A stretch of DNA of 32,000 nt from Candidatus Saccharimonadota bacterium (GCF_000300075.1 NC_018677.1:120001-152000); one strand, 5' to 3'; positions 5,628 through 32,000 are shown, counted from the stretch's first letter. Numbers and translations are program-made. The notes: generated by a model not told the origin, from the letters alone.

Positions 5628-5754
5628 ATTGTTTATTTGTTATTGTTTGTTAGATCTTTGTGGTAAAAAAAAGATGTTATATGGTTATTTAGAAAGTAGA
5701 GTAAAGATGTTGGTTGTTTAGAAAGTAGGTTGATTTGTAGATTTTATCTGTTAG

Positions 5755-5785
5755 TTGTTAGTTAGTAGAGGTTAAAGGTTGCTTT
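5755..5785 (+). repeat. Left copy of a perfect 31-bp inverted repeat (partner 7142-7172)
   Basis: ttgttagttagtagaggttaaaggttgcttt is the exact reverse complement of aaagcaacctttaacctctactaactaacaa at 7142-7172. The flanks (about 5742-5800 versus 7127-7195) continue to match imperfectly. Confidence 0.9.
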
Positions 5786-5803
5786 AAAGATTAAAGCTTT
5801 TAG

Positions 5804-5831
5804 AGTTTGTAGTTTGTAGTTTGTAGTTTGT
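5804..5831. repeat. (AGTTTGT)x4 heptamer array
   Basis: Units at 5804, 5811, 5818 and 5825. Confidence 0.9.
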
Positions 5832-6837
5832 TTTTGCTTTATTTATTTGAGTTTGTATTCTTGTTAATTATATTTGTATAAGGTTGTATTTATAGGTCGT
5901 ATAGTTGTATATTGTAGGTTTGTTGTTAGATGGTAGAGGATTATTAATTAGATGTTAGAGTTTTGTTTTTTATCTGTTAGAGGTTTGTTTTATGTTGTTT
6001 AAATGGTTGCTTTAAAAAAAGGTTTGGTAGTTGTAATTCTTAATACTACAAAACATTATATAAACAAATAGCAATTAATACGGTTTATAATAATAAAGTG
6101 TAATAGTATATAGTTATTACAAATGTAATTGATTCAACAGTTCTTTAACCAAAACAAAAAAAAACATAAATAACGCCACTTTTACATTTCAAAATAACAT
6201 TAAGCAACTAACATATTCCTAACACAACTATGTTTAATGTTCTCACTAACCTAACAACTTTTCCAACAAACATACCACAAATATAACATATTTTATCCTC
6301 TTTAAAGCAACAACTTTTTAACAAATATCAAACAACATCTAACAACTATTTCTATATTTTACTTACAACAACCTACATCTAATAAATAAATTTATATTTT
6401 ATATACAACACTAATTAGAGTTACTAATATACAACAAATAAAAAAGAAATACATAAAATTAGAAATTACATACAAAAAAAAAGTTAGTAGAATATATACA
6501 ACAATAAAAAATCAAAACAATAAACAAAAAGAACAGATAAGAAATAAAGATCTAACAAAAAAGAAAATACAAAAAGAATTAAAAAACTCTAACTTAACTC
6601 AAAAATCCAAACGGCAAAGAAAAAAGAGAATATCAAACCATCAAACTCTTAAAAAACAACCTCAAAACATCAAATAAATAAACCTCTAACAGACTTAAAT
6701 ACAAACTCTTACCTCTAACATCAAAACATATAAAATATAATAAGTAAACTCTAAAAAACAACAACTAACAGATAAAAAAAAACATCTTTAATCTTTAAAG
6801 CAACTTCTTTTAAATCTAATAAACAATAAAAGCAACA

Positions 6838-6899
6838 ATCAAACATCAAACATCAAACCTAACAACTCAAACCTCAAACCTAACAACTCAAACCTCAAA
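6838..6899. repeat. (ATCAAAC)x3 followed by a 21-nt (3x7) unit x2
   Basis: ATCAAAC at 6838, 6845 and 6852. cctaacaactcaaacctcaaa at 6858-6878 and 6879-6899. ATCAAAC is the reverse complement of the GATGTTT-array motif at 5421. Confidence 0.9.
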
Positions 6900-7016
6900 A
6901 GTCTTAAAAGCAAAAACAAACAAAAATCTAAAAAAACAACAAATTTAACAACAAACCTCTAATAATAAATAATACAAGCAAACATTTAAACAATTAAAAC
7001 TCTAACATCAAAACAA

Positions 7017-7107
7017 GCTAACCGCTAACCGCTAACCGCTAAACAACAAACAACAAACAACAAACAACTAACAACTAACAACTAACCGCTAACCGCTAAC
7101 CGCTAAG
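7017..7107. repeat. 13 consecutive in-register heptads with a drifting motif: GCTAACCx3, GCTAAAC, AACAAACx3, AACTAACx3, CGCTAACx3
   Basis: Read unit by unit from 7017. The register is never broken over 91 nt while the unit sequence changes stepwise. Confidence 0.9.
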
Positions 7108-7141
7108 CTCTAATAGATAAAACATCACCTCTTAAATCTTA

Positions 7142-7172
7142 AAAGCAACCTTTAACCTCTACTAACTAACAA
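7142..7172 (-). repeat. Right copy of the perfect 31-bp inverted repeat (partner 5755-5785)
   Basis: See the partner feature. The two copies are separated by 1356 bp. Confidence 0.9.
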
Positions 7173-7368
7173 ATAAGCTCTAATAGATAAAACATAATAA
7201 CAAATAAAAACCATAACAACTAAAAAGAAAGAACGAGTAATATAACAGAAACAGCTTTAAATAGACAAAAACAACAAAGAAATAAAAAAAAAGCAACAAA
7301 AACTAAAAGAAAAAATAACAGAATACGGCTAAAAACATAACAGCAAAGAAAAGAAAAACCATAATAAC

Positions 7369-7424
7369 TAAACAGTAAACAGCAAACAGCAAACAGCAAA
7401 CAGCTAACAGCTAACAGCTAACAG
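7369..7424. repeat. (TAAACAG)x2 (CAAACAG)x3 (CTAACAG)x3 heptamer array
   Basis: Units start at 7369 and continue in register to 7424. CTAACAG is the reverse complement of CTGTTAG, which is the GCTGTTA array at 5449-5497. Confidence 0.9.
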
Positions 7425-7925
7425 CTTAACACATAAAAACAAAAACAAAAAAAAGAACAGCTTAAAAAAAAAAAAGAAAAAAAAATAAGAATAAATTGTT
7501 TAAATCTTTTATCAGAAAAAGTACAAAATGTAGAGTTTAAGATATAACAGCAGTAAAAAAAAGAAAATGGTTAACAAGTATATATAAAAAAACAAAAAGT
7601 CAAAAAAAAACAGCAGTAAAAATTAAGAAGAGTAGAAAAGGATATAGTATAGTGAAAAGAAAACTGGAAGATATACAGAAGTGAAGTACAAAAAGAACAA
7701 TAAACTTGGTAAAAACATGTATTAGCAATGAACGTTGAAAAATGAAAAAATTAAAGGCATTAAGCATAAATCGTTATATAAAAAATATAGTGATAATGGA
7801 AAAACATAGCTTAGAAAAATTATAAGCAACGGGATAAAATACAAGAAGCTGAATAATGATAAAATTCGATAAAAAAAAAGCAACAGTATAGCCACAAATA
7901 GATTGTGAAGGAAATTAAGAAGATT

Positions 7926-9359
7926 ATGAAAAAAATACGCACACGTATTGCACCTTCACCTACAGGTACACCGCATATAGGTACAGCATATATTTCTTTA
8001 TTAAATTATTATTTTGCTCGTATAAACAATGGAAAAGTAATTCTAAGAATAGAAGATACAGATAGTAAAAGATCAAAAAGTAAGTTTGAAAACAAAATTT
8101 TAGAGTTATTACATTGGTTAGGGATTCAATGGCATGAAGGGCCAGATATCGGAGGAAAGTTCGGACCTTATCGACAAAGCGAACGGAACAATCTTTATAA
8201 TAAATATGTTGAGAAATTAATAAAAGTAGGTAAAGTATTTAAATGCTATCGTACAAGTGAAGAACTAGAAAAATTGCGTAAATGTAAAGTTGATAAAACA
8301 TTAAAAGAAAAAGATTTACAGTTAGATTATAAGGAATTAAAATTTCGTAAAAAACACAATTGGCCTTATGTAATAAGACTAAAGGTTCCTAATAAAGGAA
8401 AATGCGTATTTTATGATGTATTAAGGGGTAGTATAACAATGAATTGGGATCAGATTGATTCACAAGTCTTAATAAAATCTGACGGAACACCTACTTATCA
8501 TTTAGCTAATGTAGTAGACGATTATTTAATGGGGATTACTAACGTAATAAGGGGTGAAGAATGGATAACTTCAACTCCAAAACATAAGTTGCTTTATGAT
8601 TATTTTGGTTGGAAACAGCCAGAATTTTGTCACTTACCATTATTACGTAATCCAGATAAATCAAAATTATCTAAGAGAAAACAAAATAATTCTATTGAAT
8701 TTTATCGAAAAATGGGTTATTTACCCCAAACAATAATAAACTACTTAGGTAGTTTAGGTGGTGTAAAAACGACTAAATGGTATAGAAAAAATACAAATAT
8801 GAAAACTAAAGTTGATATAAAGAGTATATCATTAGGAGGTCCAATATTTGATTTAGACAAATTATCTTGGTTGAATGGAATTTATATACGGTCAATGAAA
8901 AATGAAACGTTAATTCAGGTTATGTATGAATGGGCTAAAGACTATATACATAAGATTTTACCAACAATTAAACCTCGTATAAAAATTTTAACGGATATTA
9001 TTCATTTATCAGAACAAGTGTTTTATGGATTACCTAAATTAAAAAAGGAAGATTTTAAAGTTATTGCTTTGAAAAAAAAATTACAAATAAAAGTACTAAA
9101 ACATTTATGGTTACAATTAGAATATATAGAAAAATGGGACAAACAAAATATATTATATAAGGTAAAACAAGTATCTAACCAGTTACAAATGAAAATGAAA
9201 ACAATAATAGCTCCAATTTTTATTGCGATAAATGGAAGATTAATTTCTACATCGGTTATTAACACTATAGTAATTCTTGGTAAAGATATAACTCGTATAC
9301 GCATAAAGCAGGCAATAAAATTAATAGGAGGTATAACACTAAAACATGAAAACAAATAA
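7926..9359 (+). CDS. gltX: glutamyl-tRNA synthetase
   Basis: MKKIRTRIAPSPTGTPHIGTAY matches the GluRS N-terminus and HIGH region (E. coli MKIKTRFAPSPTGYLHVG). A KLSKRK (KMSKS-type) motif is present. The ORF track starts at GTG 7905, but ATG 7926 aligns with GluRS N-termini. Confidence 0.93.
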   Translation: MKKIRTRIAPSPTGTPHIGTAYISLLNYYFARINNGKVILRIEDTDSKRSKSKFENKILELLHWLGIQWHEGPDIGGKFGPYRQSERNNLYNKYVEKLIKVGKVFKCYRTSEELEKLRKCKVDKTLKEKDLQLDYKELKFRKKHNWPYVIRLKVPNKGKCVFYDVLRGSITMNWDQIDSQVLIKSDGTPTYHLANVVDDYLMGITNVIRGEEWITSTPKHKLLYDYFGWKQPEFCHLPLLRNPDKSKLSKRKQNNSIEFYRKMGYLPQTIINYLGSLGGVKTTKWYRKNTNMKTKVDIKSISLGGPIFDLDKLSWLNGIYIRSMKNETLIQVMYEWAKDYIHKILPTIKPRIKILTDIIHLSEQVFYGLPKLKKEDFKVIALKKKLQIKVLKHLWLQLEYIEKWDKQNILYKVKQVSNQLQMKMKTIIAPIFIAINGRLISTSVINTIVILGKDITRIRIKQAIKLIGGITLKHENK

Positions 9360-9389
9360 AGAATATTATTCAAATAAGGTATAAAAAAT

Positions 9390-12038
9390 ATGAAAATAGC
9401 ATTAGATAATGTTAGTTATTTAGAAGAACTATACGAACAATACAAAAATAAAGGTAATGTTACTGAAGAATGGCGGCAAATTTTTGACTATATTACTAAA
9501 CAAGAATGCAGGTTTAAAACTATAAAAACATGTGAAAAAAACACAATAAAACAAATGAGCGTTTTGAAACTTATAACAAATTATCGCTATATGGGGCATA
9601 AAAAGGCACATATAAATCCAATAAGTGGTAAAAATAAAGTAAAGGCGATTCAATTGTCATTACACAAGTTAAATATAAAAGATTTAAACAAAGCATTTAA
9701 TAATGGAGTAGGTCAAAATAAATCAAAATTAAAAGAAATTATTGATGTTTTGGATAAAACTTATTGCAGCTCTATAGGATGTGAATTTAGGCACATTTTA
9801 AATAATGTGGAGATATTCTGGTTAGAGCAAAGTTTTGAATCTGTACTCAATAAATATTCACAAAAAAAAAATATAAGCTTGCATATTTTAGGATTAATTA
9901 CTGCAGCTGAAGCATTAGAAGCTTATTTATCTAGTAATTTTCCTGGTACTAAACGGTTTGGTATAGAGGGTGGAGAAACTTTAATTGCTATGTTGTATGA
10001 AACAATACAAAGAGCTGGTAATTATGGCATTAAAGAAATATTTATGGGTATGGCCCACAGAGGACGTATAAATGTATTAGTTAATATTTTGAGGAAGAGC
10101 CCAGCTGATATAATAAAGGAATTTGAAGGAAAACAAATATATGAAGCATATTCGGGTGATGTTAAATATCATCAGGGTTTAAGTTCAAATATAAAGACAA
10201 AAGGTGGTGATGTGAAGTTGAACTTAGCATTTAATCCATCACATCTAGAAATTGTTTATCCTGTAATAGAAGGAGCAGTTCGTGCTAGACAAGATTATAT
10301 GAATGATACGACAAAAGTATTACCTGTAGTGGTACATGGTGACACAGCATTTGCTGGGCAAGGTGTAGTAATGGAAACATTACAAATATCAAAAATAAAG
10401 GAATATAATACGGGGGGTACGTTACATATCTTAATAAATAATCAGATAGGTTTTACCACTTATAAACATAATGCACGATCTACGAAATATTGTAGTGATA
10501 TTGCAAAAATGTTTAATTATCCTGTTTTACATGTAAATGGAGATGATCCAGAAGCGGTTCAATATGTAACTCAAATAGCAGTTGATTATAGGAATAAATT
10601 CAAAAAAGATATGGTAATAGATATGATATGTTATCGGCGTAGGGGCCATAATGAAGCAGACGAGCCATCAATAACGCAACCAATTATGTACAAAAAAATA
10701 AAAAATAATCCAACAACACGTGAACTTTATTCAAAACATTTATTAAAACAAGGTTTAATATCAAAAAGTGATGTAAAACAAATGGTGAGTTTATATCGTC
10801 ATAAGTTAAATTATGATTCTAATAATAAAGCTTATAAAAAAACAACTGGAAGTATGTATAAATTTCATGAGGAGGATTTAAATGACACATCATTTTCAAT
10901 GAAGCGTATGCGTGAATTAGCTGTAAAATTGTGCGATTTAGGTGAACTGAAAGTTCAAAGTAAAGTTGCTAAGATTTACTCAAATCGGCGTAAATTGGTA
11001 AGTAGTAATAGTATAAAAATAAATTGGGGCTTTGCGGAGCTGTTATCATATGCCTCGTTATTGGATGAAGGATATGGAATACGTATAACAGGACAGGACA
11101 CAGGAAGAGGAACTTTCTCTCATCGTTTGGCAGTAATACATAATCAAAAAGATGGAGCGAGGTGGACGCCTCTGCAACATATAAAAAAAGGGCAACATAA
11201 GTTTACGATAGTAGATTCTTCTCTTTCAGAAGAAGCAGCTCTAGCTTTCGAATACGGTTATTCTACTACATCAAAAAATATGTTCGTAGCGTGGGAAGCT
11301 CAGTTCGGTGACTTTGCTAATGGAGCCCAGGTAGTTATTGATCAATTTATATCTTCAGGGGAAAATAAGTGGGGAAGTTTATGCAGTCTAACTTTATTAC
11401 TGCCGCATGGATATGAAGGTCAAGGTCCAGAACATTCTTCCGCGCGGATAGAACGATTTATTCAGTTATGTGCGGAACAAAATATGCAAGTCTGTGTTCC
11501 TACAACTCCTTCACAAGTATTTCATTTAATACGTAGTCAGGCAAAACGAAAAAACCGTAAACCATTAATATTGATGCAACCAAAAAGTTTATTGAGGCAC
11601 AAATATGCAAGATCAAGTTTTGAAGATTTATCTAATGGAAGATTTAAAACAGTAATTGGAGAAACGGAGAAGATCAAGCCAGATATAGTAAAAAGGGTAA
11701 TACTTACATCAGGTAAAGTATATTACGATTTAGTTGCTTATCGTAAAGAAAAAAATATTTATGAAACAGCTATTTTAAGAATAGAACAGATTTATCCTTT
11801 CCCAGAAAAAAGTATTATAAAAAAAATATCTATTTACTCTAAGTGTGAACATATTATTTGGTGTCAAGAAGAACCTAAAAATCAAGGCGCTTGGTATCAA
11901 ATAAAATACTTTTTAAATAAGAAACTTAAGATAAGACTAAAATTTGTAGGACGTACCTCTGCATCCGCACCAGCATCTGGTTATTTTGATGCACATCTTA
12001 AACAGCAGGCTAATTTAATAAAAGAAGCATTTTTTTAA
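9390..12038 (+). CDS. sucA: 2-oxoglutarate dehydrogenase E1 component
   Basis: 882-aa ORF with E1o signatures GMAHRGRINVL, HGDTAFAGQGVV, QFGDFANGAQV and LLLPHGYEGQGPEHSS. An aaggt sequence lies 9 nt upstream of the ATG. Confidence 0.95.
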   Translation: MKIALDNVSYLEELYEQYKNKGNVTEEWRQIFDYITKQECRFKTIKTCEKNTIKQMSVLKLITNYRYMGHKKAHINPISGKNKVKAIQLSLHKLNIKDLNKAFNNGVGQNKSKLKEIIDVLDKTYCSSIGCEFRHILNNVEIFWLEQSFESVLNKYSQKKNISLHILGLITAAEALEAYLSSNFPGTKRFGIEGGETLIAMLYETIQRAGNYGIKEIFMGMAHRGRINVLVNILRKSPADIIKEFEGKQIYEAYSGDVKYHQGLSSNIKTKGGDVKLNLAFNPSHLEIVYPVIEGAVRARQDYMNDTTKVLPVVVHGDTAFAGQGVVMETLQISKIKEYNTGGTLHILINNQIGFTTYKHNARSTKYCSDIAKMFNYPVLHVNGDDPEAVQYVTQIAVDYRNKFKKDMVIDMICYRRRGHNEADEPSITQPIMYKKIKNNPTTRELYSKHLLKQGLISKSDVKQMVSLYRHKLNYDSNNKAYKKTTGSMYKFHEEDLNDTSFSMKRMRELAVKLCDLGELKVQSKVAKIYSNRRKLVSSNSIKINWGFAELLSYASLLDEGYGIRITGQDTGRGTFSHRLAVIHNQKDGARWTPLQHIKKGQHKFTIVDSSLSEEAALAFEYGYSTTSKNMFVAWEAQFGDFANGAQVVIDQFISSGENKWGSLCSLTLLLPHGYEGQGPEHSSARIERFIQLCAEQNMQVCVPTTPSQVFHLIRSQAKRKNRKPLILMQPKSLLRHKYARSSFEDLSNGRFKTVIGETEKIKPDIVKRVILTSGKVYYDLVAYRKEKNIYETAILRIEQIYPFPEKSIIKKISIYSKCEHIIWCQEEPKNQGAWYQIKYFLNKKLKIRLKFVGRTSASAPASGYFDAHLKQQANLIKEAFF

Positions 12039-12071
12039 TTTAAAGCTAATAAAATAAAAAGGATAATAAAG

Positions 12072-13283
12072 ATTAAATATATAGAAATAAAAGCCCCTAG
12101 ATTTCCTGAATCTGTAAATGAAGGTACTGTTGCTACTTGGCATAAAAAACCTGGTGATAAAATTTCACCATATGAACTTATTGTTGAAGTAGAAACGGAT
12201 AAAGTTTTGCTTGAGGTTGTTTCACCAACTGAAGGGTTTCTTCAAATTATAAAGATACCAGTAGGTAAAAAATGCAAATCCGAGCAATTGTTAGGTATTA
12301 TTGTAGCACAAAAAGAAGAAGGTTTTTATAGTTCAGGTTCATCAAGCACAAGCACAAACATCAAACAGCAAAAATTGTGTAAAAAAGAGCAAAAGGTAGA
12401 TGAATCAGAAAAACAAGAATTAAAACAGTTTTATAAACAAGCAATAGAATTAGAAGAAAGTTATTCACCAGAGGTACGTAAGGCTAAGACTAGTATAGAT
12501 GTTGAAAACTTATTTGAGAATGGCACAGTACAAGATAAAAGGGTAAATATTAGAAAAGAAAATGTTAAATATAGTATTAATGAAATTGGAGTTAAAAGAG
12601 TACAATTAAGTCGTTTACGTCAGACGATTACTAAACGTATCGTGAAAGCTCAAAAAAATGCTGCAATGTTAACTACTTATAATGAAGTAGATATGGGTAA
12701 TATATTAGAAATACGCACAAAATATCGAGAACTATTTGAAAAGAAACATGGAACTAAGCTAGGGTTAATGGGATTTTTTGTAAAAGCTTGTACGGTGGCG
12801 CTAAAACAGTTCAAAAAAGTAAATGCAGTTATTGATGATAAAGAAATTGTTTATCATAATTATCAAGACATAGGAATAGCAGTTTCTACAAATAGGGGTT
12901 TAGTTGTTCCTATTTTAAGGCATACTGATTCTATAAAAATAGAAGAAATAGAAAAAAAAATTATGGATTTTAGGAAACGTGGTGTTGATGGAAAATTAAG
13001 TATTAAAGAATTAACTGGTGGAACTTTTACGATAAGTAATGGAGGAGTTTTTGGATCTCTGTTTTCTACTCCTATTATTAATCCCCCTCAAACTGCTATT
13101 TTGGGAATGCATAAAATTCAAAACCGTCCTGTAGTTTTAAAAGGAGAAATAGTTATACGGCCTATGATGTATTTAGCCTTGTCGTATGATCATCGTCTTA
13201 TTGATGGAAAAGATGCAGTTAATTTTTTATTTTTTGTTAAGGAGCTTTTAGAACAACCCATTCGTTTTATATTAAACATTTAA
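12072..13283 (+). CDS. sucB: dihydrolipoyllysine-residue succinyltransferase (E2o); start codon non-canonical and uncertain
   Basis: The catalytic domain carries [10 protein letters not shown]. The ORF track begins at TTG 12207, but the same frame is open from 12054 and encodes an intact lipoyl domain (..[20 protein letters not shown]...[12 protein letters not shown]). There is no ATG, GTG or TTG in frame upstream of 12207. ATT at 12072 sits 8 nt after an AGGA at 12060-12063. Confidence 0.85.
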
Positions 13284-13288
13284 CTGTA

Positions 13289-14722
13289 ATGAGAAAAACA
13301 AATATGGTATCTCTTTTTGATGTAATTGTCATAGGTTCAGGTCCAGCTGGTTACGTCGCTGCAATAAGATCTGCGCAATTAGGACTTAAAACTGCTTGTG
13401 TTGAACAATGGATGAATAATGGAAGAGTTGTTTATGGCGGTACTTGCTTAAATGTTGGGTGTATACCTTCAAAAACTTTATTAGAAATATCACATAAGTT
13501 TATTGATGCTAAGGCGAATTTCGAAAAAATAGGTATAAATTTTGAAAATATTAGTATAAATGTAAAAAAAATGATCAGGCATAAAAATAAAATTGTTTAT
13601 AGCTTAAATGATGGAATTGCAGCTTTGTTCAAAGCTAATGGTGTTGTAGTATTAAGAGGATCTGGTAAGATTTTAACAAAAAAAACAGTAGAAGTGTTAC
13701 ATAAAGGTAAGCTTTGTAATTTTAAAGCTAAGAATATTATTATTGCTTCAGGATCTATACCTCGTTGCCTAAATCAGGTCCCTTTTAACGGCGATACTAT
13801 AATAGACTCTGCAGCTGCTTTAAATTTACAAGAGGTACCTAATCGTTTAGGTATAATCGGAGCAGGTATTATTGGGATAGAATTAGGCTCAGTTTGGAGT
13901 CGGCTAGGTAGCAAAGTTACTATATTTGAATCTTTAGATAAGTTATTACCAGTTATTGACTTTTCTTTATCAAAACAAATATCGCAAATTTTAAAAAAAC
14001 AAGGGTTAAATATAAAATTTAATGTGCGTATTATTGGTAGTGAAATTGTAAATAACGAAGTAAAAGTTAGATTTATAGATCATTTTGGTGAGCATTGCTT
14101 AACTTTTGATAAGTTGATAGTTTGTATTGGTAGGATGCCTTTTACACAATCGTTAATAGATAAAGAGAGTGGTCTAGTTATTGCCACTAATGGCTTTATT
14201 AAAGTTGACAGACAATGCAAAACAAATTTATCAGGAATTTACGCTGTTGGAGACGTTGTTAGGGGTCCTATGTTAGCACATAAAGCGGCTCAAGAAGGCA
14301 TAATGGTGGCTGAGCTTATAGCAGGGAATCAGGTACAGTTAAATTATGATACTATTCCAGGGGTAATTTATACAAGTCCAGAAGTAGCTTGGGTTGGCAA
14401 AAATGAACAGCAGCTTATTTCATATGGCATAAAAAATTACAAAATAGGTATTTTTCCTTTTGCTAATTGTGGTAGAGCTAGGACAAGTAATGAAATACAA
14501 GGTCTTGTAAAAATAATTACAGATGTTAACGATATAATTTTGGGTGTGCATATTATTGGCCACAATGCTAGTGAATTAATTGCTCAGGGTGTTATTGCTA
14601 TGGAATTTAGTTCAAGTGCAGAGGATTTAGCTTTAACTTGCTTTGCTCATCCAACTCTCTCAGAAGCAATACACGAAGCAGCTTGTACTGCATCATTAGG
14701 CAATACGATTCATAATATTTAA
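13289..14722 (+). CDS. lpdA: dihydrolipoyl dehydrogenase (E3)
   Basis: Motifs present: VIGSGPAGY FAD-binding motif, redox-active disulfide GGTCLNVGCIPSK, a GAGIIGIELG NAD fold, and C-terminal HAHPTLSEA. An alternative start is ATG 13304. Confidence 0.94.
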   Translation: MRKTNMVSLFDVIVIGSGPAGYVAAIRSAQLGLKTACVEQWMNNGRVVYGGTCLNVGCIPSKTLLEISHKFIDAKANFEKIGINFENISINVKKMIRHKNKIVYSLNDGIAALFKANGVVVLRGSGKILTKKTVEVLHKGKLCNFKAKNIIIASGSIPRCLNQVPFNGDTIIDSAAALNLQEVPNRLGIIGAGIIGIELGSVWSRLGSKVTIFESLDKLLPVIDFSLSKQISQILKKQGLNIKFNVRIIGSEIVNNEVKVRFIDHFGEHCLTFDKLIVCIGRMPFTQSLIDKESGLVIATNGFIKVDRQCKTNLSGIYAVGDVVRGPMLAHKAAQEGIMVAELIAGNQVQLNYDTIPGVIYTSPEVAWVGKNEQQLISYGIKNYKIGIFPFANCGRARTSNEIQGLVKIITDVNDIILGVHIIGHNASELIAQGVIAMEFSSSAEDLALTCFAHPTLSEAIHEAACTASLGNTIHNI

Positions 14723-15232
14723 TTAATCTTAATTTCATAGAATGGAAATTAGTTGTTACATATACTTGTTGTTTATTATTAATAGAGTATATATTTCTCT
14801 TTCACAAATTTGGGTAAATTTTATTTTGTATTGTTGCCATTAGTTAATACAAAAAACTAAGAATGTACTAAGTTAAAAATTAACAGTTTATTTCTTTAAA
14901 GACTTTTTATAACAGGTTATTTATTGCTTGTACATTAAAAACTTTTGTTATTGATATATTAATTTTATTAACAGTTTGTTGTTAGAAGTAAAACGTTATT
15001 ATTAATAATTTTCATAATTTGGTTGATAACTATTTAAGATATTCTATGTTGTGTTTAAAATTTGTGCTTTTTTTTTTATTTTTTTTTGATTAAGATGTTA
15101 ACTGTTTTTTCTGTTTTGTTTGTTTTATGGTGTATGTTTATTTTGTGTTTTTTTTTGCTTTTGTTTTTTATGTAATATTTTTAAGTTTTGTTGTTAGTTT
15201 TTCTTCTTTGTTTTTATTGTTATGTTTTTTAT

Positions 15233-15263
15233 TAGAGGTTTTAGGTTGCTTTAAAGATTTAAG
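15233..15263 (+). repeat. Copy of the dispersed spacer module TAGAGGTT(NNAGGTT)GCTTTWAAGATTTAAG
   Basis: tagaggttttaggttgctttaaagatttaag. Compare 5766-5796 tagaggttaaaggttgctttaaagattaaag (+), 7131-7161 (reverse complement tagaggttaaaggttgcttttaagatttaag), 21004-21027 (reverse complement tagaggttgcttttaagatttaag) and the partial copy at 21074-21094. Confidence 0.8.
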
Positions 15264-15863
15264 CTGTTGTATTAAAGAGTTTTTTTTTGTGAGGTTGTTT
15301 AGAGTTTTGTTTTTTGTTATTACTTAGTAGTTGTTAGTTGTTAAAATTGGTTATTACTTATTAGTTGTATAGAGAAAGTGAAGTTGTGTATATTAGTATT
15401 GTTTGTAAATAAGGTTGTTGTAAATGTGGTATAAAGGTTGTTGTAAAAAATATTGTATTATTACTGTTGTTAATGATAGAAATATATAAAAATAGATGTT
15501 AAGTGATGGTATTTGGTATTACTAAATAGTTGTGTGTTTTGTGTTAGGCATAATTAGTAAAGGTATTGTGGTTGTGTATTATGTGAGATTGTAAAAGGTT
15601 GGTGGTTGTAAAACAGTTCGTGGTTAAATGAAAAAGTGTTGTATTATAAAAAGAAAAAAATAGTAACTTATTTGTATTTTTTATGAATGGAATTGGGTGA
15701 AAGGTGTATAATGTGTGTATTTGTATTACATGAAAAATGAAATTGTATTGTATTTAGTATTATTATTATTGTGTTAGGTGATGTGGTAATGTGTTGTAGT
15801 TGTGTATTTGATGATTTGTGTAAATGTGTTGTAGTAGTATATGGTGTAAGAGTTTTAAAAAGG

Positions 15864-15930
15864 TTGCTGGTTTGTGTAGTTGTTTTAAAAGAAAGTAAAA
15901 GATTGCTGGTTTGTGTAGTTGTTTTTAAAA
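15864..15930. repeat. Direct repeat, 39-nt period, 2 copies
   Basis: ttgctggtttgtgtagttgtttt..aaaa starts at 15864 and again at 15903. Confidence 0.85.
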
Positions 15931-15987
15931 AACAAGTAAGAAGTTGTAAAAAAAAAGAAGGAAAAGGAAAAAATTGGCAATTGGCAG

Positions 15988-16005
15988 TTGGGGTTGGGGT
16001 TGGGG
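15988..16005 (+). repeat. (TTGGGG)x3
   Basis: ttggggttggggttgggg read directly. It is followed by a gtagtttgtagt heptad motif. Confidence 0.9.
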
Positions 16006-16110
16006 TTTTGTAGTTTGTAGTCGTATGTTGTAGGTGTGATATGTATAAGATGTTAGAAGTTGTTGTTAGCTGGTAGGAGTTGTGCTAAATGTACTTTGTT
16101 ATTATTTATT

Positions 16111-16131
16111 AGCAGTTAGCAGTTAGCAGTT
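16111..16131. repeat. (AGCAGTT)x3 heptamer array
   Basis: agcagttagcagttagcagtt read directly. Confidence 0.9.
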
Positions 16132-16420
16132 TTGTGAGGTTGTTTTGTGTTTTGAAGTTTGTTAATTTGTGTAAGGTGGAAGAAAAAAGTTATAATTGTT
16201 AGTAAATAAATGTGTTATAAAATATTAAAAGAATTTATATAAGTGGTGATAAGTAAAAGGTAGGTTGTATAAAAGGGAAAAAAAAGTTGTAGTAAAAGTT
16301 GTAGTTAGTTTATTAATGGAAAAGATTTATAAAATAAACAGAAGGGATTTAGTTAATTGAAAAATGTAGAGGGTTAAAGTAAGATAATAGATTGGTGTTG
16401 TTGAAATAAGTAGTAAAATT

Positions 16421-16498
16421 AGTAATAGTAGTAAGATGTAAAAGAAGGGTTGTTAAGTTGGTAGTAATAGTAGGTAAATGTAAAAGAAGGGTTGTTAA
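16421..16498. repeat. 36-nt segment duplicated with a 42-nt period, ending 13 nt before the rpsF ATG
   Basis: agtaatagtagtaagatgtaaaagaagggttgttaa (16421-16456) versus agtaatagtaggtaaatgtaaaagaagggttgttaa (16463-16498): 33 of 36 positions identical. Confidence 0.85.
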
Positions 16499-16511
16499 TA
16501 AGGACAAAAAT

Positions 16512-16799
16512 ATGAATTATGAAATAAATATATTATTAAATGTAAATAATGACAATTTAACATCAGAAAATATAAAAAAGTTAATTAAAATTATTATTGA
16601 AAATAATGGAAGAATAACCAAGTTGGAAGACTTAGGGAATTTAAATTTATATTATTTAATAAAAAAGCAAAAACAAGCTAATATTATATTAATAAACATA
16701 GATTGTGAAAAATATGTTATAAAAAAATTAGAAAAAAGACTTAAATATAATGAAGTGATAATTAGATATATTATTATAAAAAATCTAAGGCAAAAATAA
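16512..16799 (+). CDS. rpsF: 30S ribosomal protein S6
   Basis: MNYEINILLN.. aligns with S6 N-termini (E. coli MRHYEIVFMV). aaggac lies just upstream. The ORF-track start at 16458 (TTG) adds 18 residues translated from repeat sequence. Confidence 0.85.
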   Translation: MNYEINILLNVNNDNLTSENIKKLIKIIIENNGRITKLEDLGNLNLYYLIKKQKQANIILINIDCEKYVIKKLEKRLKYNEVIIRYIIIKNLRQK

Positions 16800-16821
16800 A
16801 AGTTAATAAGTAGGAAAAAAT

Positions 16822-17061: not shown

Positions 17062-17066
17062 TAGAT

Positions 17067-20623: not shown

Positions 20624-20663
20624 GTTACTATTATATTATATAAAACTTTTAAAAGGAAAAAAA

Positions 20664-20879
20664 ATGCCTTATATTAAAATAAGAGAGAATGAATCATTTG
20701 AGGTTGCTTTAAGACGTTTTAAAAGATCTTGTGAAAAAGGAGGGTTATTGGCAGAAGTACGTCGCAGAGAATTTTATGAAAAACCTACAACTGTTCGTAA
20801 ACGAAAAGCAGCTGCTGCTATAAAGCGTTATATTAAAAAGATTAAGCGTGAACATACCCGGTTTGAACGTAAATATTAA
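20664..20879 (+). CDS. rpsU: 30S ribosomal protein S21
   Basis: [43 protein letters not shown] is near-identical in pattern to E. coli S21. aaggaaaa lies upstream. The ORF-track start at 20574 lies inside tsaD on the opposite strand and is rejected. Confidence 0.95.
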
Positions 20880-20984
20880 TTTCGTTAAATTCAACAAACA
20901 TGGTATAATAAACACAGCTTATAACAGCAAATACTTTAAAAGCAACCTCAAAATTCTAATTAAAACAACAAAACAACATCTAAT

Positions 20985-21146
20985 AAATAAACCTCAAACA
21001 TAACTTAAATCTTAAAAGCAACCTCTAAAAGCTAAACTCTAAACTCTAAAATCTTAAATCTTAAATCTTAAATCTTAAAACTTAAAAGCAACCTAAAACA
21101 TCTACTAACAAATAAACCTCAAACATAACTTAAATCTTAAAAGCAA
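20985..21146. repeat. Perfect 37-nt direct repeat (20985-21021 and 21110-21146) flanking heptamer arrays (AAACTCT)x2 and (AAATCTT)x4-5 at 21034-21083
   Basis: aaataaacctcaaacataacttaaatcttaaaagcaa occurs twice, identically. AAATCTT units start at 21049, 21056, 21063 and 21070, with a variant at 21077. Confidence 0.9.
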
Positions 21147-21427
21147 AAAATAACCAACTAATAAAAAATAAAATGCAAGAAAAAAAAACATAACAGCTAA
21201 CATTAAAAGAAGATAACAGTAAACAAAGAACAAAGGTATAAACAAAAAAAACGGAATATGCAGAACATCAACTAAATATATTAATGTATGTAAATTATAC
21301 ACATAGAGTGCAATATAAAAATAGTTCAGGAGTAGAAAGTGGAAAGTAGTTGATTAAAGCAATATAAGTAATATTATAAAATTAGTGTGACAGAGAGAGT
21401 AAAAATAAAGATTATGTTGAGAAAAAT

Positions 21428-24014: not shown

Positions 24015-25964
24015 ATGTTAGGTAGATTAAAATTTGAGTCTATACCTTATAAAGAACCTATAATTTTATTTACAGGAATATTCGTCTTTTTAGTTATTAT
24101 TTTAATTTTAAGTATCATAACGTATTTAAAAAAATGGATATATATTTGGAACTACTGGATAAGAACATTGGATCATAAAAAAATAGGTATAATGTATATT
24201 ATATTTGCATTAATTATGTTAATACGTGGTTTTACAGATGCAGTTATGATGAGATTACAACAAGTTATAGCTTATAAAAACAATATAGGTTATTTACCTT
24301 CATATCATTATGATCAAATATTTACAGTACATGGCGTAATAATGATCTTTTTTATGGCGATGCCTTTTATGTTTGGTTTAATGAATATAATAGTTCCTTT
24401 GCAAATTGGTGCAAGAGATGTTGCGTTTCCGTTTTTAAATTCATTAAGTTTATGGTTAACAGTTTTTTCAGGCGTGTTAATAAATATTTCTTTATTTATA
24501 GGTGAATTTGCTTCAACAGGTTGGTTAGCGTACCCACCTTTATCAGGTATTGAATTTAGTAAAGGAGTAGGGGTGGATTATTGGATATGGAGTTTACAAA
24601 TATCAGGTATAGGAACGTTAATCGCAGGCATAAATTTTGTAGTGACTATTTTAAAAATGCGTGCGCCAGGAATGGAATTTATGAGATTACCTATTTTCAC
24701 ATGGACAATACTATGTAGTAACCTTTTAATAATTATGTCGTTTCCTATTTTAACAGCTACGATTTCTTTATTAACTTTAGATAGATATTTAAATATGCAA
24801 TTTTTTACTAATCATTTTGGTGGAAACCCAATGATGTATGTAAATCTTATTTGGGCATGGGGACATCCCGAAGTCTATATTTTAATTTTACCTGCGTTTG
24901 GAATCTATTCAGAAATAGTCTCTACATTTTGTAAAAAAAAGTTGTTTGGTTATAATTTGTTAGTGTATGCAACTATTGTAATAACAGGATTATCATTTAT
25001 AGTATGGTTGCATCATTTTTTTACTATGGGTGCAGGTGCAGATGTAAATGCATTTTTTGGTATTTCCACAATGATTATTTCAATACCAACAGGCGTTAAA
25101 ATCTTTAATTGGTTATTCACCATGTATAAAGGCAAAATTGAATTTGGTATTCCAATGTTATGGACAGTAGGCTTTTTAATAGCGTTTAGTATTGGAGGTA
25201 TGGCAGGAGTTTTATTAGCTATTCCTGGTGTTGATTTTTTATTACATAACAGTTTGTTTTTAGTAGCTCATTTTCATAATGTAATAATCGGAGGTGTATT
25301 ATTTGGATATTTAGCAGGTTTAAATTATTGGTTCCCTAAAATATTTGGGTTTAAATTAAATGAAAAAATAGGGAAATATACAGTTGTTTGTTGGTTAATA
25401 GGTTTGTTTGTAGCATTCGTTCCTTTATATATTTTGGGAGTATTAGGAATGACAAGAAGAGTCAGTTATTATAATAATAAGATTTGGCATAGATTCTTAT
25501 TAATCGCAATGTTTGGAACAATAATAATTTTATTTGGCGTAATTGGTCAAGTATTACAAGTCATTAGAAGTATAATAGAAAAAGATAATAATAAAGATTA
25601 CTCAGGTGATATGTGGAATGGAAGAACATTGGAATGGAGTATATCTTCTCCTCCTAACAGTTATAATTTTGCAAATATACCCTACATAATAGATAGGGAT
25701 CAGGTTTTGTTGTTAAAAAAAAGACAATATGTTAAAAAAAATAAATATAAAAAAATAAAAATGCCTAAAGATACTTGTAAAGCGTTTTTTATATCTTTAT
25801 TTAGTTTAATTTTTAGTTTTTCAATGGTTTGGTACATATGGTGGTTATCTATTATCGGATTTGTAGGAATGATAAGTACGTATATGTTTTATTTGTATAG
25901 TACAAAGAAAGTTTCTTATATAAAGGTAGAGGAAATAAAAAACAATGAAAAAAGATTTATGTAA
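24015..25964 (+). CDS. cyoB: cytochrome bo3 ubiquinol oxidase subunit I
   Basis: Heme-copper oxidase subunit I motifs [26 protein letters not shown] and [12 protein letters not shown] strong SD (aaggag) at 24002-24007 precedes the ATG. Confidence 0.96.
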
Positions 25965-25981
25965 ACTTTAATGGTAATAAA

Positions 25982-26527: not shown

Positions 26528-26528
26528 T

Positions 26529-27672: not shown

Positions 27673-27680
27673 TAGGAGTA

Positions 27681-27761: not shown

Positions 27762-28093
27762 TTTACATTAAAGTTTTTATCTCTCTTGTTTGATTTTTTA
27801 AAACCTAACTACATATCTCTTTTTGTTTTTGTTTTTATTTTTCTTTTTTAAAACTTAACGTGTTCCTTTTTTTATTCAGTTGTTTCTTTTTTTTTACAAC
27901 GTTACAATATTTTAAAATTAAACCCTTACATTCAACTCTTATCTTTAACCACAACCACAACCAAAACGTGCTTTAGATATTAAAATCTTTTCTTAAACCC
28001 AAACCCTCTTTAAATCAACAATTTTTAACGCCTCTACTTTAATATTACATCCTCAAACATTATATAATAACTAACCTCTACCTTTAAATCTTA

Positions 28094-28185
28094 TTATCTA
28101 ATCTAACAAATATCTACCTTCTTTTACTTGTTATCTAATCTAACAAATATCTACCTTCTTTTACTTGTTATCTAATCTAACAAAA
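28094..28185. repeat. 37-bp tandem repeat, ~2.5 copies
   Basis: ttatctaatctaacaaatatctaccttcttttacttg is identical at 28094-28130 and 28131-28167. A partial third copy starts at 28168. Confidence 0.92.
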
Positions 28186-28436
28186 TTCTATGAATTAACT
28201 CAACAAAACAATATCTAAATTCTAATTAATAAAACAAACAACTATTAAACAAAACTCTAAATTCTAAAACAACAAACCTCTAACTAACATCAAAGCATCA
28301 AATTAATAAACATCTAACAGACTATTAAACAAAACTCTTACCTCTAACAGACTAAAAAAATATAACATAAAACATCTAAAAGCTTTAAAACACCTCAAAC
28401 CTACAAACGCTAACTTCTTAAAAACAACATTAAAAA

Positions 28437-28487
28437 ACAAACATCAAAAAAAATAAAACTTAAAACAAACATCAAAAAAATAAAACT
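28437..28487. repeat. ~27-28-nt A-rich direct repeat, 2 copies
   Basis: acaaacatcaaaaaaa(a)taaaact starts at 28437 and at 28465. Confidence 0.75.
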
Positions 28488-28599
28488 CAAAAACAAATAA
28501 CATATAAAAGACTAAAAAAAAACAAAACATTATACAGTATACATCATAAGAGATTAACAGCCTAACATCTTATCATCCTAATATCATAAATTCATAAGA

Positions 28600-28623
28600 G
28601 CTTAACAGCTTAACAGCTTAACC
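28600..28623. repeat. (GCTTAACA)x3 octamer array
   Basis: gcttaacagcttaacagcttaacc read directly. The related string cataagag(c/a)ttaa recurs at ~28545, ~28593 and ~28658. Confidence 0.85.
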
Positions 28624-28932
28624 TTCAAAATTTCAAAGCTTTTAAATTTGAAAAACTCATAAGAGCTTAAGATTTTACAACACTACAATTCTTTACTTTT
28701 TTACAACAATTACTATTACTCACTTAACTTCTTACAAATTATTTAATATATATACAATCAACACATATTTCATTACAACTAAGCCTATAACAAACAACAT
28801 ATTTACTTTTCCCATAAACAATATTTTTTCTTACAACAAAACTTCTTGCAAAACCTAGCTTTTAACAACGTACATAAATTATAACTTCATACATCAATAC
28901 AACTATTCTTCTTTTTTTTTTATTTTCTTAAT

Positions 28933-28992
28933 TCAATACAATTCTACTTTTGTTTGTCAATACAACTCTACTTTTGTTTGTCAATACAACTA
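28933..28992. repeat. 24-bp tandem repeat, 2.5 copies, ~180 nt upstream of rpsO
   Basis: tcaatacaattctacttttgtttg (28933-28956), tcaatacaactctacttttgtttg (28957-28980), and the partial copy tcaatacaacta (28981-28992). Confidence 0.9.
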
Positions 28993-29173
28993 CCACGTAT
29001 ATACATATAAATTATGTTAAAAGAATAATACAACAAAAAGACAAAAAAGATTGTAAAAAAACAAACAGAAAAGGTAGAAAAATGTATATCAGAAAAAAAA
29101 ACATACAAAGACAGAAAAAATATATTATTAAAAGAAAAATAAGAAAAACAAGAAAAAATCGGAGACAAAAAAA

Positions 29174-29434
29174 ATGACAGGTAAAAATATCATAATAAAT
29201 GCATTTGGCAAAAATAAAATTGATACAGGGAATTCTGAAGTGCAAATTGCAATAATAACTAACAATATATATAAATTACAAATTCATTTAAAAAAAAATA
29301 AATATGATTATCATTCACAACTAGGAATGACTCGTATGGTCAATAAACGTAGAAAACTTTTAACTTATTTAAAAAAAACACAAGTTTCTCGTTATAAACA
29401 TTTAGTAAAAACACTTAAATTGCGTCATAAATAA
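29174..29434 (+). CDS. rpsO: 30S ribosomal protein S15
   Basis: DTGNSEVQIAIITNNI..L..H...K.DYHSQLGMTRMVNKRRKLLTYLKK parallels E. coli S15. Confidence 0.93.
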   Translation: MTGKNIIINAFGKNKIDTGNSEVQIAIITNNIYKLQIHLKKNKYDYHSQLGMTRMVNKRRKLLTYLKKTQVSRYKHLVKTLKLRHK

Positions 29435-29458
29435 AATACATAAAAAAGGATAAAAATA

Positions 29459-31588
29459 TTGAGTTCATTTGTAAAAAAACAGTTTAAGTATGGTGGAAAA
29501 ACTATTTGTTTAGAAACTGGTAAAATAGCTAAAAACACTAAAGGTAGTGTAGTTATAACAATTGACAAAACAATAGTGTTGTGTACAGTAGTTGTAAACA
29601 AAGTTTTAAAAAACAAACAGTGTCTTCCTTTGTCTGTATTTTATCAAGAAAAATATTATGCTGCAGGTAAAATTCCAGGTGGCTTTTTTAAAAGAGAAGG
29701 CCGCGCTACAGAAAAAGAAATATTAACATCAAGACTAATTGATAGACCTATAAGACCAAATATAAACAACTTTTATAATAATGAAATACAAATAATTTGT
29801 ACCGTGCTTTCTGCTAAAAAAAATACAGATATTACCGCTATGATTGGTACATATGCAGCTCTAGGTATTACTGATATACCTTTAAAACAAAGTATGGGTG
29901 TTGCTAGAGTAGGTTTTAATAAAGAGGTTGGTTTTTGGCTTGATATAACTAAAGAAAAATGTTCAGAACTAGATATAGTCGTAGCCGGCACAAAAAAATC
30001 CGTATTGATGGTAGAAACGGAAGCAAAACAAAAAACAGAGGCAATAATTATAGGTGCTATTAGTTTTGCACATCGAGAATTGCAAGTCGTTATAAAAAAT
30101 ATAAAGGAATTTAGTAAAGATTATAAAACTAAAAACATTAATAACAAATTAAAATCAAATAAACTAAAAGTTCATATATCTTCTTTTAAAGATTACTTAT
30201 TTAAAAAATTTAATCATAGTATTAATGATACTTTTTATATAGTTGATAAAATCAAAAGAAAAGAGGCATTGATAATTATAACTAACCAAGTGTTTGAAAC
30301 ATTTATAAATCACTTTTTAACACTTTTTTATATTTATGAAAATTTGAACTTAATAATTAAAAAAATCTTTATAAACTTTTTGTTTTCCATAAAAAAAAGA
30401 ATTGATGGTCGTGATTTTAAAACCATTCGTTCATTATCCATTGAATTATGTTGTTTACCTTGTACTCATGGCTCTGCTTTGTTTTGCAGGGGTGATACTC
30501 AAGCCATAGTTGCTCTAACTCTGGGAAGTTTACGTGATGCTCAATTTATTGAAGGATTAGAAGAAGACCGTTATGATAATATAATGTTTCATTATAATTT
30601 TACCCCTTATAGTGTCTGTGAAATAGGTTTTATAGGTATGCCAAAACGGCGTGAAATTGGCCATGGTAATCTTGCAAAAAGAGCAATACTTGGTGTTGTA
30701 TCTAAAGACGAGTTTCCATACTCAATAAGAATTGTTTCAGAAATTACTGAATCAAATGGCTCTAGTTCTATGGCGTCTGTATGTGGTGCTTCATTAGCAT
30801 TGATGCATGCAGGAGTACCATTAAGAACAACAGTAGCAGGTGTTTCTATGGGTTTGATAACAAAAAAAGAACACTTTTTCGTACTTACAGATATTGTAGA
30901 TGAGGAAGATAAATTTGGTGATATGGATCTAAAAATTGCTGCTACATTTAAAGGTATAACAGCCTTACAAATGGATATAAAGCAACAAGGCAGTAAAACG
31001 GATCAGAAAGAGATTTTACAAAGGACTTTGAATCAAGCTTTAGAGGCTATAAAACAGATTAGTGCGAAAATGAATGTAGTAATAAGTCAAAGTAGAAAAA
31101 GTATATCTATAAACGCACCTAGTTATGTTGTATTAAAAATAGAAACAGAAAAATTACGTGATGTAATTGGTAAAGGTGGTACTACTATAAAAAAAATATG
31201 TGAGTTTACCAATTCTGCTATAGAAATTCAAGATGATGGCAATATACATATTTATGCCAAGACTAAATTAAATTTACAAAAGGCAATAGAAGCTATAAAG
31301 TTGATTACTGAAGAAACAAAACTAAACAAGTTATATAGAGGTAAAGTTATACGCATCATGGAATTTGGTGCTTTTATTAATTTATTGCCTGGTATTGATG
31401 GTTTAGTTCATGTTTCACAAATTAGTTCTTGTCATGTTACAAATATAAGAGAATTTATTAGTGAAGGAGATATTGTGACGGTAAAAGTGTTAGAAAAAGA
31501 TCATAAAGGAAAACTTAAATTATCCATAAAAGAAATAGATCCTATTGAAAAATCAATATTTGAAGCTAAAATACAATCATTTATATAA
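29459..31588 (+). CDS. pnp: polynucleotide phosphorylase (TTG start)
   Basis: 709-aa ORF with two RNase PH domains (RLIDRPIRP, GRDFKTIRS, REIGHGNLAKRA, SNGSSSMASVCG), a KH domain (IGKGGTTIKKI) and an S1 domain (GKVIRIMEFGAFINLLPGIDGLVHVSQIS). AGGA lies 8 nt upstream of TTG 29459. E. coli pnp also initiates at UUG. Confidence 0.95.
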   Translation: MSSFVKKQFKYGGKTICLETGKIAKNTKGSVVITIDKTIVLCTVVVNKVLKNKQCLPLSVFYQEKYYAAGKIPGGFFKREGRATEKEILTSRLIDRPIRPNINNFYNNEIQIICTVLSAKKNTDITAMIGTYAALGITDIPLKQSMGVARVGFNKEVGFWLDITKEKCSELDIVVAGTKKSVLMVETEAKQKTEAIIIGAISFAHRELQVVIKNIKEFSKDYKTKNINNKLKSNKLKVHISSFKDYLFKKFNHSINDTFYIVDKIKRKEALIIITNQVFETFINHFLTLFYIYENLNLIIKKIFINFLFSIKKRIDGRDFKTIRSLSIELCCLPCTHGSALFCRGDTQAIVALTLGSLRDAQFIEGLEEDRYDNIMFHYNFTPYSVCEIGFIGMPKRREIGHGNLAKRAILGVVSKDEFPYSIRIVSEITESNGSSSMASVCGASLALMHAGVPLRTTVAGVSMGLITKKEHFFVLTDIVDEEDKFGDMDLKIAATFKGITALQMDIKQQGSKTDQKEILQRTLNQALEAIKQISAKMNVVISQSRKSISINAPSYVVLKIETEKLRDVIGKGGTTIKKICEFTNSAIEIQDDGNIHIYAKTKLNLQKAIEAIKLITEETKLNKLYRGKVIRIMEFGAFINLLPGIDGLVHVSQISSCHVTNIREFISEGDIVTVKVLEKDHKGKLKLSIKEIDPIEKSIFEAKIQSFI

Positions 31589-31885
31589 TACACTTCTTTG
31601 CAATTTACATCAATTAAAAGTTACTGTCTTGATTATTGTAGTTATGTTTGTTAAATAAAAAAATGTTGTATAAAGTGTAAAAGGCTCTTATAAAAGTTTG
31701 TTAAGTTAAATTAAGTCATGTTGAATTTATATAATATATTAATTATTAAAAATTAATGGATTTTTAAGTTACTAGATGGTTCATTTCTATATTTTTTTTG
31801 TTAGATAATTTTCGTTTTTATGCTGTTAGAGACTTTGTGTTAGTTGTGATTTTTATGTTGTTATTTATTAAAATCTGTTTTAAAT

Positions 31886-32000
31886 TTTAGAGTTTTGAGT
31901 TTAGAGGTTTGTTTTAAAGCTTTTAGAGGTTAGTTTTTAAAAGATAAAAGATTAAAGATTAAAGATTTTAGAGTTTGTAGTTTGTAGTTAGAGGTTAGAG
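31886..32000. repeat. Heptad arrays, (AAAGATT)x3 at 31947-31967 and (AGTTTGT)x2.5; includes a 34/35-nt copy of 5787-5821 at 31955-31989
   Basis: aagattaaagattttagagtttgtagtttgtagtt (31955-31989) versus aagattaaagcttttagagtttgtagtttgtagtt (5787-5821): a single mismatch. The window ends inside a GGTTAGA-type array. Confidence 0.88.

Follow-up and report, generated by a model that had tools for sequence, protein, structure and literature searches.

A short ordered module whose orientation matches local composition in the 7-bp-periodic spacers of Candidatus Portiera aleyrodidarum from Bemisia tabaci

It is well established that Candidatus Portiera aleyrodidarum of the whitefly Bemisia tabaci (Portiera BT) is unusual among ancient endosymbionts in having bloated and unstable intergenic DNA. 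Taken together, the searched passages of three published accounts (Sloan & Moran 2013, PMC3673631; Santos-Garcia et al. 2020, PMC7821994; PMC5322561) describe about 30% intergenic DNA in large intergenic regions, many rearrangements and the loss of a clear genome-wide GC-skew pattern, while those of PMC3673631 and PMC7821994 add a peak of 7-bp tandem repeats, 7-bp indels, the loss of dnaQ and active gene conversion. In the same portion of PMC3673631 the replication, recombination and repair set is reduced to dnaE, dnaB and mutS, and gene conversion is said to keep a few longer repeats (prfA/prfB, 172 bp, and a 349-bp pair). Here we describe a module of ~45-50 bp that recurs in the spacers of a 32,000-nucleotide stretch of this genome (NC_018677.1:120001-152000, hereafter the window, whose first letter is position 1). 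The module is best explained as the best-preserved block of a lineage-specific repeat family that is C-poor on one strand and 7-bp periodic, and it is probably neutral repeat DNA of the Portiera BT intergenic regions that has been spread by slippage, inverted duplication and short-tract gene conversion. The 7-bp-rich intergenic DNA in the consulted parts of PMC3673631 and PMC7821994 is its closest relative, with the same organism, regions, 7-bp periodicity, 7-bp strain indels and association with rearranged or gene-loss sites; whereas those descriptions concern tandem repeats and a few long perfect repeats, the present features are a short ordered block, a strand polarity of the spacers and a palindrome-like spacer. 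The searched passages of all three accounts hold no mention of a short dispersed ordered block or of spacer strand polarity, and those of PMC3673631 and PMC7821994 mention no palindrome-like spacer between the 5S gene and gltX; the word 'skew' occurs in neither of these two papers.

The sequence covered amounts to ~49 kb of the ~352-kb genome. Within the window, the 16-nt core of the module, GCTTTWAAGATTWAAG, has eight matches with no more than two mismatches (5781+, 6786-, 7131-, 15248+, 21004-, 21067-, 21074- and 21129-), where shuffles of the whole window give an expectation of 0.52. When the spacers alone were shuffled with dinucleotides preserved, the control called for in the original prediction from this window, 0.00 exact and 0.14 near matches were expected, against six and eight observed, and the recurrence is thereby confirmed. 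A 31-mer found at 5766+, 7131- and 15233+ (0 expected from shuffles) keeps 29-31 of its 31 positions in the three copies and is the longest block conserved between spacers. An nhmmer profile, built from six copies and run on 39.5 kb of the window strain, returned eight copies at E<0.01, all of them intergenic and located in three regions, namely 5S-gltX (both arms), lpdA-rpsF and rpsU-rpoD.

5751..5800, + strand: full module copy TTAGTTGTTAGTTAGTAGAGGTTAAAGGTTGCTTTAAAGATTAAAG in the G+T-rich arm of 5S-gltX, followed by an (AGTTTGT)x4 array; 44.5 bits, E 8.5e-13; flank GC skew +0.87.
6782..6829, - strand: module copy with an exact core at 6786-6801; 29 bits, E 5.9e-8; flank GC skew -0.82.
7127..7176, - strand: full module copy in the A+C-rich arm of 5S-gltX; 43.9 bits; 93% complementary to 5751-5796.
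15221..15267, + strand: module copy in the lpdA-rpsF spacer; 39.3 bits; orthologous site in all strains.
20936..20961, - strand: partial copy closest to rpsU, TTTTGAGGTTGCTTTTAAAG on the - strand; 14.5 bits.
21000..21047, - strand: module copy in the rpsU-rpoD spacer; 33.2 bits.
21041..21117, - strand: module copy (21071-21117) whose 3' end merges into an (AAGATTT)n array (21041-21087); 34.5 bits.
21125..21146, - strand: truncated copy, core only; 13 bits, E 0.0065.

Weaker pieces and relatives are the following.

6005..6016, + strand: truncated piece GGTTGCTTTAAA, 25 nt ahead of the polarity switch at ~6040; weak, E 1.3.
6296..6311, - strand: truncated piece, GTTGTTGCTTTAAAGAG on the - strand, on the A+C side of the switch; weak, E 0.38.
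28372..28412, - strand: degenerate relative before rpsO, GAGGTGTTTTAAAGCTTTTAGA on the - strand; weak, E 2, by direct reading.
31888..31989, + strand: degenerate copy after pnp, with an (AAAGATT)x4 array and a 3' flank as at the 5751 copy.

The copy after pnp is weak by the profile (31888-31929, E=0.32), yet it is homologous by BLAST (5784-5821 versus 31952-31989, 97%). All module coordinates given in the original prediction were verified, and to its list we add four sites that it had overlooked (6782-6829, 20936-20961, 6296-6311 and the degenerate 28372-28412, all on the - strand). The recurrence holds, but the number of spacers, put at five or more, comes down to four intergenic regions because 5S-gltX has two arms. 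The proposal that orientation follows the strand composition of the spacer is borne out, since the orientation agrees with the sign of the GC skew of the 300-nt flanks, that is with the local C-poor strand, in eight of eight copies at E<0.01; because copies in the same spacer are not independent, we count this concordance as about five independent placements.

The module is embedded in sequence of a distinctive kind. On their C-poor strand the large spacer segments are near-uniform in composition (C 2-6%, G 19-25%), with the exception of the short segment of 546 bp at the right-hand end (C 10%, G 16%). Module-bearing segments show autocorrelation peaks at lags of 7, 14 and 21, Tandem Repeats Finder reports many period-7 arrays, some of which adjoin or overlap the module, and the module itself can be parsed into the 7-mers TAGAGGT, TAAAGGT, TGCTTTA and AAGATTA. 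Such a makeup would fit an independent origin, in which a few 7-bp units (TAGAGGT, AAGATTW and others) favoured by slippage or composition had been assembled alike by chance in strongly 7-periodic spacers with common units. We regard this as very improbable, since a non-periodic order of differing units, 31-46 bp long, recurs at 89-100% identity where composition-matched shuffles give 0, and since the flanking blocks are common to the copies too. Other blocks, TTAGAGGTTTGTT, TTAGAGTTTTGTTT, TTAAAGCTTTTAGA and TTTGTAGTTTGTAG, recur in three or four segments, always in a composition-consistent orientation, and the idea that the module is the unique core of the repeat family is therefore abandoned. 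Sharing of 11-mers rose above expectation almost only when both segments were oriented to their C-poor strand, with 112 shared versus 11.3 expected for the two arms of 5S-gltX, 52 versus 8.9 for the 5S arm and the segment after pnp, 43 versus 7.8 for the gltX arm and the segment before rpoD, and 46 versus 12.3 for the gltX arm and the segment before rpsO. This strand-consistent sharing, together with identical 7-bp units carried in opposite orientation by the two arms of 5S-gltX, indicates that spacers of both compositions, G+T-rich and A+C-rich, belong to a single family present in either orientation, as had been suggested.

The relation between the two orientations is clearest within the 5S-gltX spacer, which consists of two arms.

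4900..6040, + strand: C-poor (G+T-rich) arm of the 5S-gltX spacer; C 3%, G 25%.
6041..7500, - strand: G-poor (A+C-rich) arm of 5S-gltX, a decayed inverted copy of the other arm; nested mirrored repeats 5425-5991 versus 7449-6636.

Inverted matches between the arms are roughly nested (5425-5496/7378-7449, 5751-5796/7131-7176, 5813-5840/6907-6934, 5899-5931/6943-6975 and 5931-5986/6636-6691), and the spacer is therefore a decayed palindrome of ~2 kb that was later distorted by local slippage, which is why it is first G+T-rich and then A+C-rich. The same test on the spacer between a gene for a 214-aa protein and hisI gave only weak, non-colinear inverted matches. Another two-armed spacer of 3 kb, G+T-rich and then A+C-rich, lies between rpsA and dapA (CP016343.1, locus 2235-5241); it contains no full module, only weak family blocks such as GTTAGTTAGTAGAGGATTTAGG in composition-consistent orientation. 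No convincing fragments of other genes were found in the spacers.

We then compared strains. The rpsO product is identical in the complete Portiera genomes CP007563.1, CP016343.1, CP016327.1 and CP016304.1, the last of which is 99.98% identical to the window. Module copies occupy orthologous sites in all available B. tabaci strains; the 5751 copy, represented by the window strain's own sequence only, lies outside this comparison. The indels of the rpsU-rpoD spacer fall within the module arrays: two measure 7 bp (AAGATTT and TTTTAAG units), a third 6 bp and a fourth ~39 bp. Point differences between strains are few outside these arrays, and the module is the most indel-prone part of this spacer. 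The length of the (AAGATTT)n array at 21041-21087 varies among strains, and a duplicated unit of 125 bp is present as a single unit in one short-read contig, which may be an assembly collapse. Paralogous copies differ by 6-11%, above the divergence of orthologues, a pattern that neutral decay predicts.

Some differences between strains are shared by copies at separate loci. A 6-bp insertion, GTTTGT, lies between TAGAGGT and TTTAGGTTGC in the lpdA-rpsF copy of CP016343.1 and CP016327.1, and in CP016327.1 alone the same hexamer is also found in the rpsU-rpoD copy and in the copy upstream of gltX, where TAAAGG has in addition become the lpdA-type TTTAGG while the copy's own downstream variants are retained. 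Three independent insertions are unlikely because the hexamer is not a copy of an adjacent unit. In CP016343.1 the lpdA-rpsF spacer also holds an extra module-like piece, GGTTGCTTTAAGCTTAAAGCTTTTAG, which is absent in the four other aligned strains, in a region whose 7-bp arrays differ completely between lineages. The parallel insertion and the extra copy suggest short-tract ectopic conversion or template switching. The likeness to the prfA/prfB and 349-bp repeats, as far as these are treated in the searched parts of PMC3673631, would lie in the same derived change being carried by several paralogous copies of a single strain; unlike those converted repeats, the copies here are ~50 bp long, non-coding and in both orientations, the inferred tracts measure 6-16 nt, and one or two assemblies only are involved. 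Concerted evolution of repeats has reportedly occurred in Tremblaya princeps as well. The hypervariable part of the lpdA-rpsF spacer (window 15960-16140; ~5200-5330 and ~5300-5450 in the loci of two other strains) carries GGTTGGG, GTAGGTT, GGCAGTT or TAGTTAG arrays depending on the lineage.

Substitutions were also inspected. Derived bases that match the base 7 nt away, as expected of homogenising substitutions, gave no signal (39 derived versus 42 ancestral). A first count of strand-asymmetric substitutions in the skewed spacers pointed to T>G on the C-poor strand and included unpolarisable changes and clustered misalignments; only 8 + 8 changes were left after filtering, too few to bear out such an asymmetry. 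Of the polarised isolated coding substitutions between strains (window ~6822-32000 and beyond), 40 are transversions, including A>C (9), C>A (8), T>A (11) and T>G (7), and 4 are transitions; some of the T>A changes lie at boundaries between T and A runs and may be homopolymer-length errors.

An extra copy in one strain, and the short, dispersed, intergenic nature of copies in both orientations, could bring to mind the remnants of a small non-autonomous mobile element of the MITE or REP kind that inserted in either orientation, and the copy upstream of gltX is indeed bracketed by 22-bp direct repeats, TAAGCTCTAATAGATAAAACAT (7104-7125 and 7174-7195), 70 bp apart. This spacing fits a tandem duplication of 10 x 7 bp better than a target-site duplication, and flanking direct repeats were found at 7127-7176 only. 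Neither a palindromic body nor terminal inverted repeats were detected by folding or by direct reading of the aligned copies, and on the lack of terminal repeats the original prediction was right. The orientation always matches local composition, unlike random insertion, and the gene set left in this genome for replication, recombination and repair, noted above from PMC3673631, also argues against such an element. A search with the pattern GTTGCTTTWAAGATTWAAG gave 37 loci in a large genome collection (185,579 genomes) and 57 in a metagenome collection, with one match each and no Portiera locus; the titled loci in the genome collection belong to unrelated organisms, and these single matches serve as a chance baseline only. 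REP/BIME sequences, ERIC sequences and MITEs are likewise short, intergenic, multi-copy and present in both orientations, but the module differs from them in lacking a palindrome and terminal inverted repeats, in having no known cognate transposase, in lying within satellite-like arrays and in the tie between orientation and composition. We therefore consider a mobile origin most improbable.

More distant Portiera were compared as well. In a sister lineage with 84% identity in pnp and the same local gene order, the polarity of the orthologous spacers is kept, A+C-rich before rpsO (GC skew ~ -0.8) and G+T-rich after pnp (~ +0.8; sister locus 7750-9700 and 12250-14000 compared with window 27950-29000 and 31589-32000). 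These two spacers have retained no positional sequence homology, they hold few perfect tandem arrays, and the module is absent from the sister lineage by profile search and by comparison of the examined locus. The sister rpsU-rpoD spacer is just 212 bp long, and in the B. tabaci spacer only the 165 bp next to rpoD align with it; the module-bearing A+C-rich block is therefore an insertion of the B. tabaci lineage. The gene order rpsU-dnaG-rpoD is found in many bacteria. In both lineages rpsU adjoins rpoD without dnaG between them (window 20880-21210; sister locus 1147-1358), and thus the block probably sits at a gene-loss site. The compact Portiera genome of T. vaporariorum contains neither expanded spacers nor the module, and for this relative the question of whether the module is conserved where the spacers are not expanded is answered in the negative.

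This distribution also bears on function. If the module were a cis-element under selection, such as one that terminates transcription, directs RNA processing or is bound by a protein that recognises DNA or RNA, the strong conservation of the 31-mer described above would be accounted for, as would the position of + copies downstream of genes within the window and the sequence GCTTTAA-AGA-TTAAAGC (or a form with one mismatch) followed by T-rich sequence in two copies. This hairpin is not kept in the other copies, and folding of six copies gave no consistent structure, with folds that differ and are no better than those of shuffles (z from -2.1 to +1.4). No terminator-like site, that is a G+C-rich stem-loop with a T run, was found at any copy, and no spacer matched Rfam at the gathering score or at E<=1. 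The nearest gene end upstream of a copy is ~330-1870 bp away, - copies face away from the genes that come after them, and copy number and internal length differ among strains. The resemblance to Rho-independent terminators is thus restricted to a small A+T-rich hairpin followed by Ts in two copies, without a G+C-rich stem, without conservation of the hairpin and away from gene ends. With no shared fold, terminator or Rfam match, with its absence from the sister lineage and from T. vaporariorum Portiera and with its place in the most indel-prone part of the rpsU-rpoD spacer, the suggestion of a conserved functional site found no support, and we judge such a site very unlikely. There is no sign that the module does anything for the cell, and the finding reveals no new regulatory element.

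The placement of spacer polarity relative to genes was found to be less regular than the window alone suggests. Within the window, the proposed rule that G+T-rich sequence follows 3' ends and A+C-rich sequence precedes 5' ends stands, but beyond it the rule breaks down: across eight spacers it holds about as often as it fails. The rpsA-dapA spacer obeys it. G-poor sequence directly follows rpsU and a tRNA, against the rule, and the spacer between the 214-aa gene and hisI is A+C-rich and then G+T-rich in gene sense. Just left of the window, upstream of 16S (locus 200-1000), lies a third flavour that is rich in G+A and poor in C (C 2%, A 49%), with a spurious open reading frame of 140 aa called on its antisense strand.

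As to where the sequence came from, one site in a gene attracted attention.

20697..20724, + strand: module-core look-alike in the rpsU coding sequence, TTTGAGGTTGCTTTAAGACGTTTTAAAAGA; p about 0.005; not exceptional under lenient scoring.

The core could be a coding fragment of rpsU (ribosomal protein S21) that was duplicated in inverted form just downstream and then amplified and spread, an origin that would be compatible with the module being neutral repeat DNA and that we consider possible, though rather unlikely. The core resembles the rpsU coding sequence TTTGAGGTTGCTTTAAGA...TTTAAAAGA, and a perfect 14-nt inverted repeat links rpsU at 20697-20710 (TTTGAGGTTGCTTT) with 20939-20952, 228 nt downstream of the rpsU site; the copy most like rpsU is the one nearest to it. 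The rpsU gene of the sister lineage (locus 965-990) is closer still to the module, with AGAAGA in place of AGACGT and a gapped identity of ~23/26, and when the profile is run on coding sequence its top two matches fall on the orthologous rpsU sites (11.9 and 8.7 bits), where one of 200 shuffled coding sets attains 11.8 bits. Against such an origin, other genes match the rpsU-rpoD spacer as well or better under lenient scoring, chance exact matches of 17 nt between spacers and genes occur in this A+T-rich genome, and the similarity to rpsU stops at about 30 nt.

In light of these data, we propose that the module arose and persists through three processes. In the first, which the sequences demonstrate, replication slippage builds and resizes 7-bp arrays, the 3' end of the module, AAGATTW, being one such unit. 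In the second, likewise demonstrated, whole stretches duplicate, sometimes in inverted form, as in the case of the A+C-rich arm of 5S-gltX, which represents a decayed inverted copy of the G+T-rich arm. In the third, suggested by the parallel changes in one strain, short tracts may be copied between copies kilobases apart, which would keep the copies alike and occasionally make new ones. Each copy lies within homologous C-poor sequence and was copied along with it, and this is why orientation tracks composition. If the copying took the form of microhomology-guided template switching, a G+T-rich 3' end would anneal only to an A+C-rich template, and this constraint would by itself make orientation conform to local composition. 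Eukaryotic minisatellites and higher-order satellites are comparable in that a short unit is amplified by slippage, diverging units give rise to higher-order blocks (here of ~70 and ~125 bp) and conversion homogenises the copies, but the module is found in a bacterial endosymbiont genome of 0.35 Mb and in a setting of extreme G/C strand asymmetry.

Several points weigh against this model. Full copies were found at window 5751-21146 only, and ~17 kb of extra sequence, from the window strain and another strain, contained none. The parallel insertion in CP016327.1 could be a cross-mapping artefact of assembly or polishing, and the extra copy in CP016343.1 could be an assembly artefact. The absence of predicted structure may be compatible with a protein-binding site. 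Lastly, the model gives no explanation for the conserved polarity of orthologous spacers in the sister lineage despite complete sequence turnover, and this conservation leaves room for a local process that acts on these regions. A broader reading, which we offer tentatively as a possibility worth entertaining, is that the module is the footprint of an ongoing copy-choice process that operates without a recombinase of the symbiont. Tracts of ~6-50 nt would be transferred and homogenised among spacers that lie 6-14 kb from one another, in either chromosomal orientation, with strand composition setting the direction; through the same process kilobase blocks would stay C-poor or G-poor over millions of years despite turnover of their sequence. 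In that case Portiera BT would offer a natural setting in which to study short-tract ectopic conversion by DnaE, DnaB and MutS alone, or by factors supplied by the host.

To the known phenomenon of unstable intergenic DNA the module adds descriptive detail, namely that the spacers form one strand-asymmetric family in both orientations, that at least one spacer is a decayed palindrome and that loci may still exchange a block of 50 bp. If that exchange is real, it would give a sequence-level handle on rearrangement and homogenisation in a genome that has almost none of its own replication and repair genes.

Other features of the window deserve brief mention. Its start holds part of the rRNA operon (16S, partial; tRNA; 23S; 5S), and 3' of 5S the order is gltX, sucA, sucB, lpdA, rpsF-rpsR-rplI-dnaB, tsaD (on the - strand), rpsU, rpoD, cox genes, cyoE, tRNA, rpsO and pnp. 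The cox1 gene is an intact open reading frame of 649 aa (24015-25964), while no cox1 is called in the near-identical loci of CP016304.1; this suggests either that an indel separates the two sequences or that the CP016304.1 record contains an error. The sucB call ranges from 356 to 401 aa depending on the strain, with or without a lipoyl domain, and a gap of 168 bp lies 3' of sucA (12039-12206); the 5' end of sucB may be undergoing degeneration or carry a frameshift. Two longer near-perfect tandem repeats are unrelated to the module, a purine-rich unit of 35 bp repeated 2.5 times at 4170-4256 (100%) and a unit of 37 bp repeated 2.6 times at 28090-28184 (98%).

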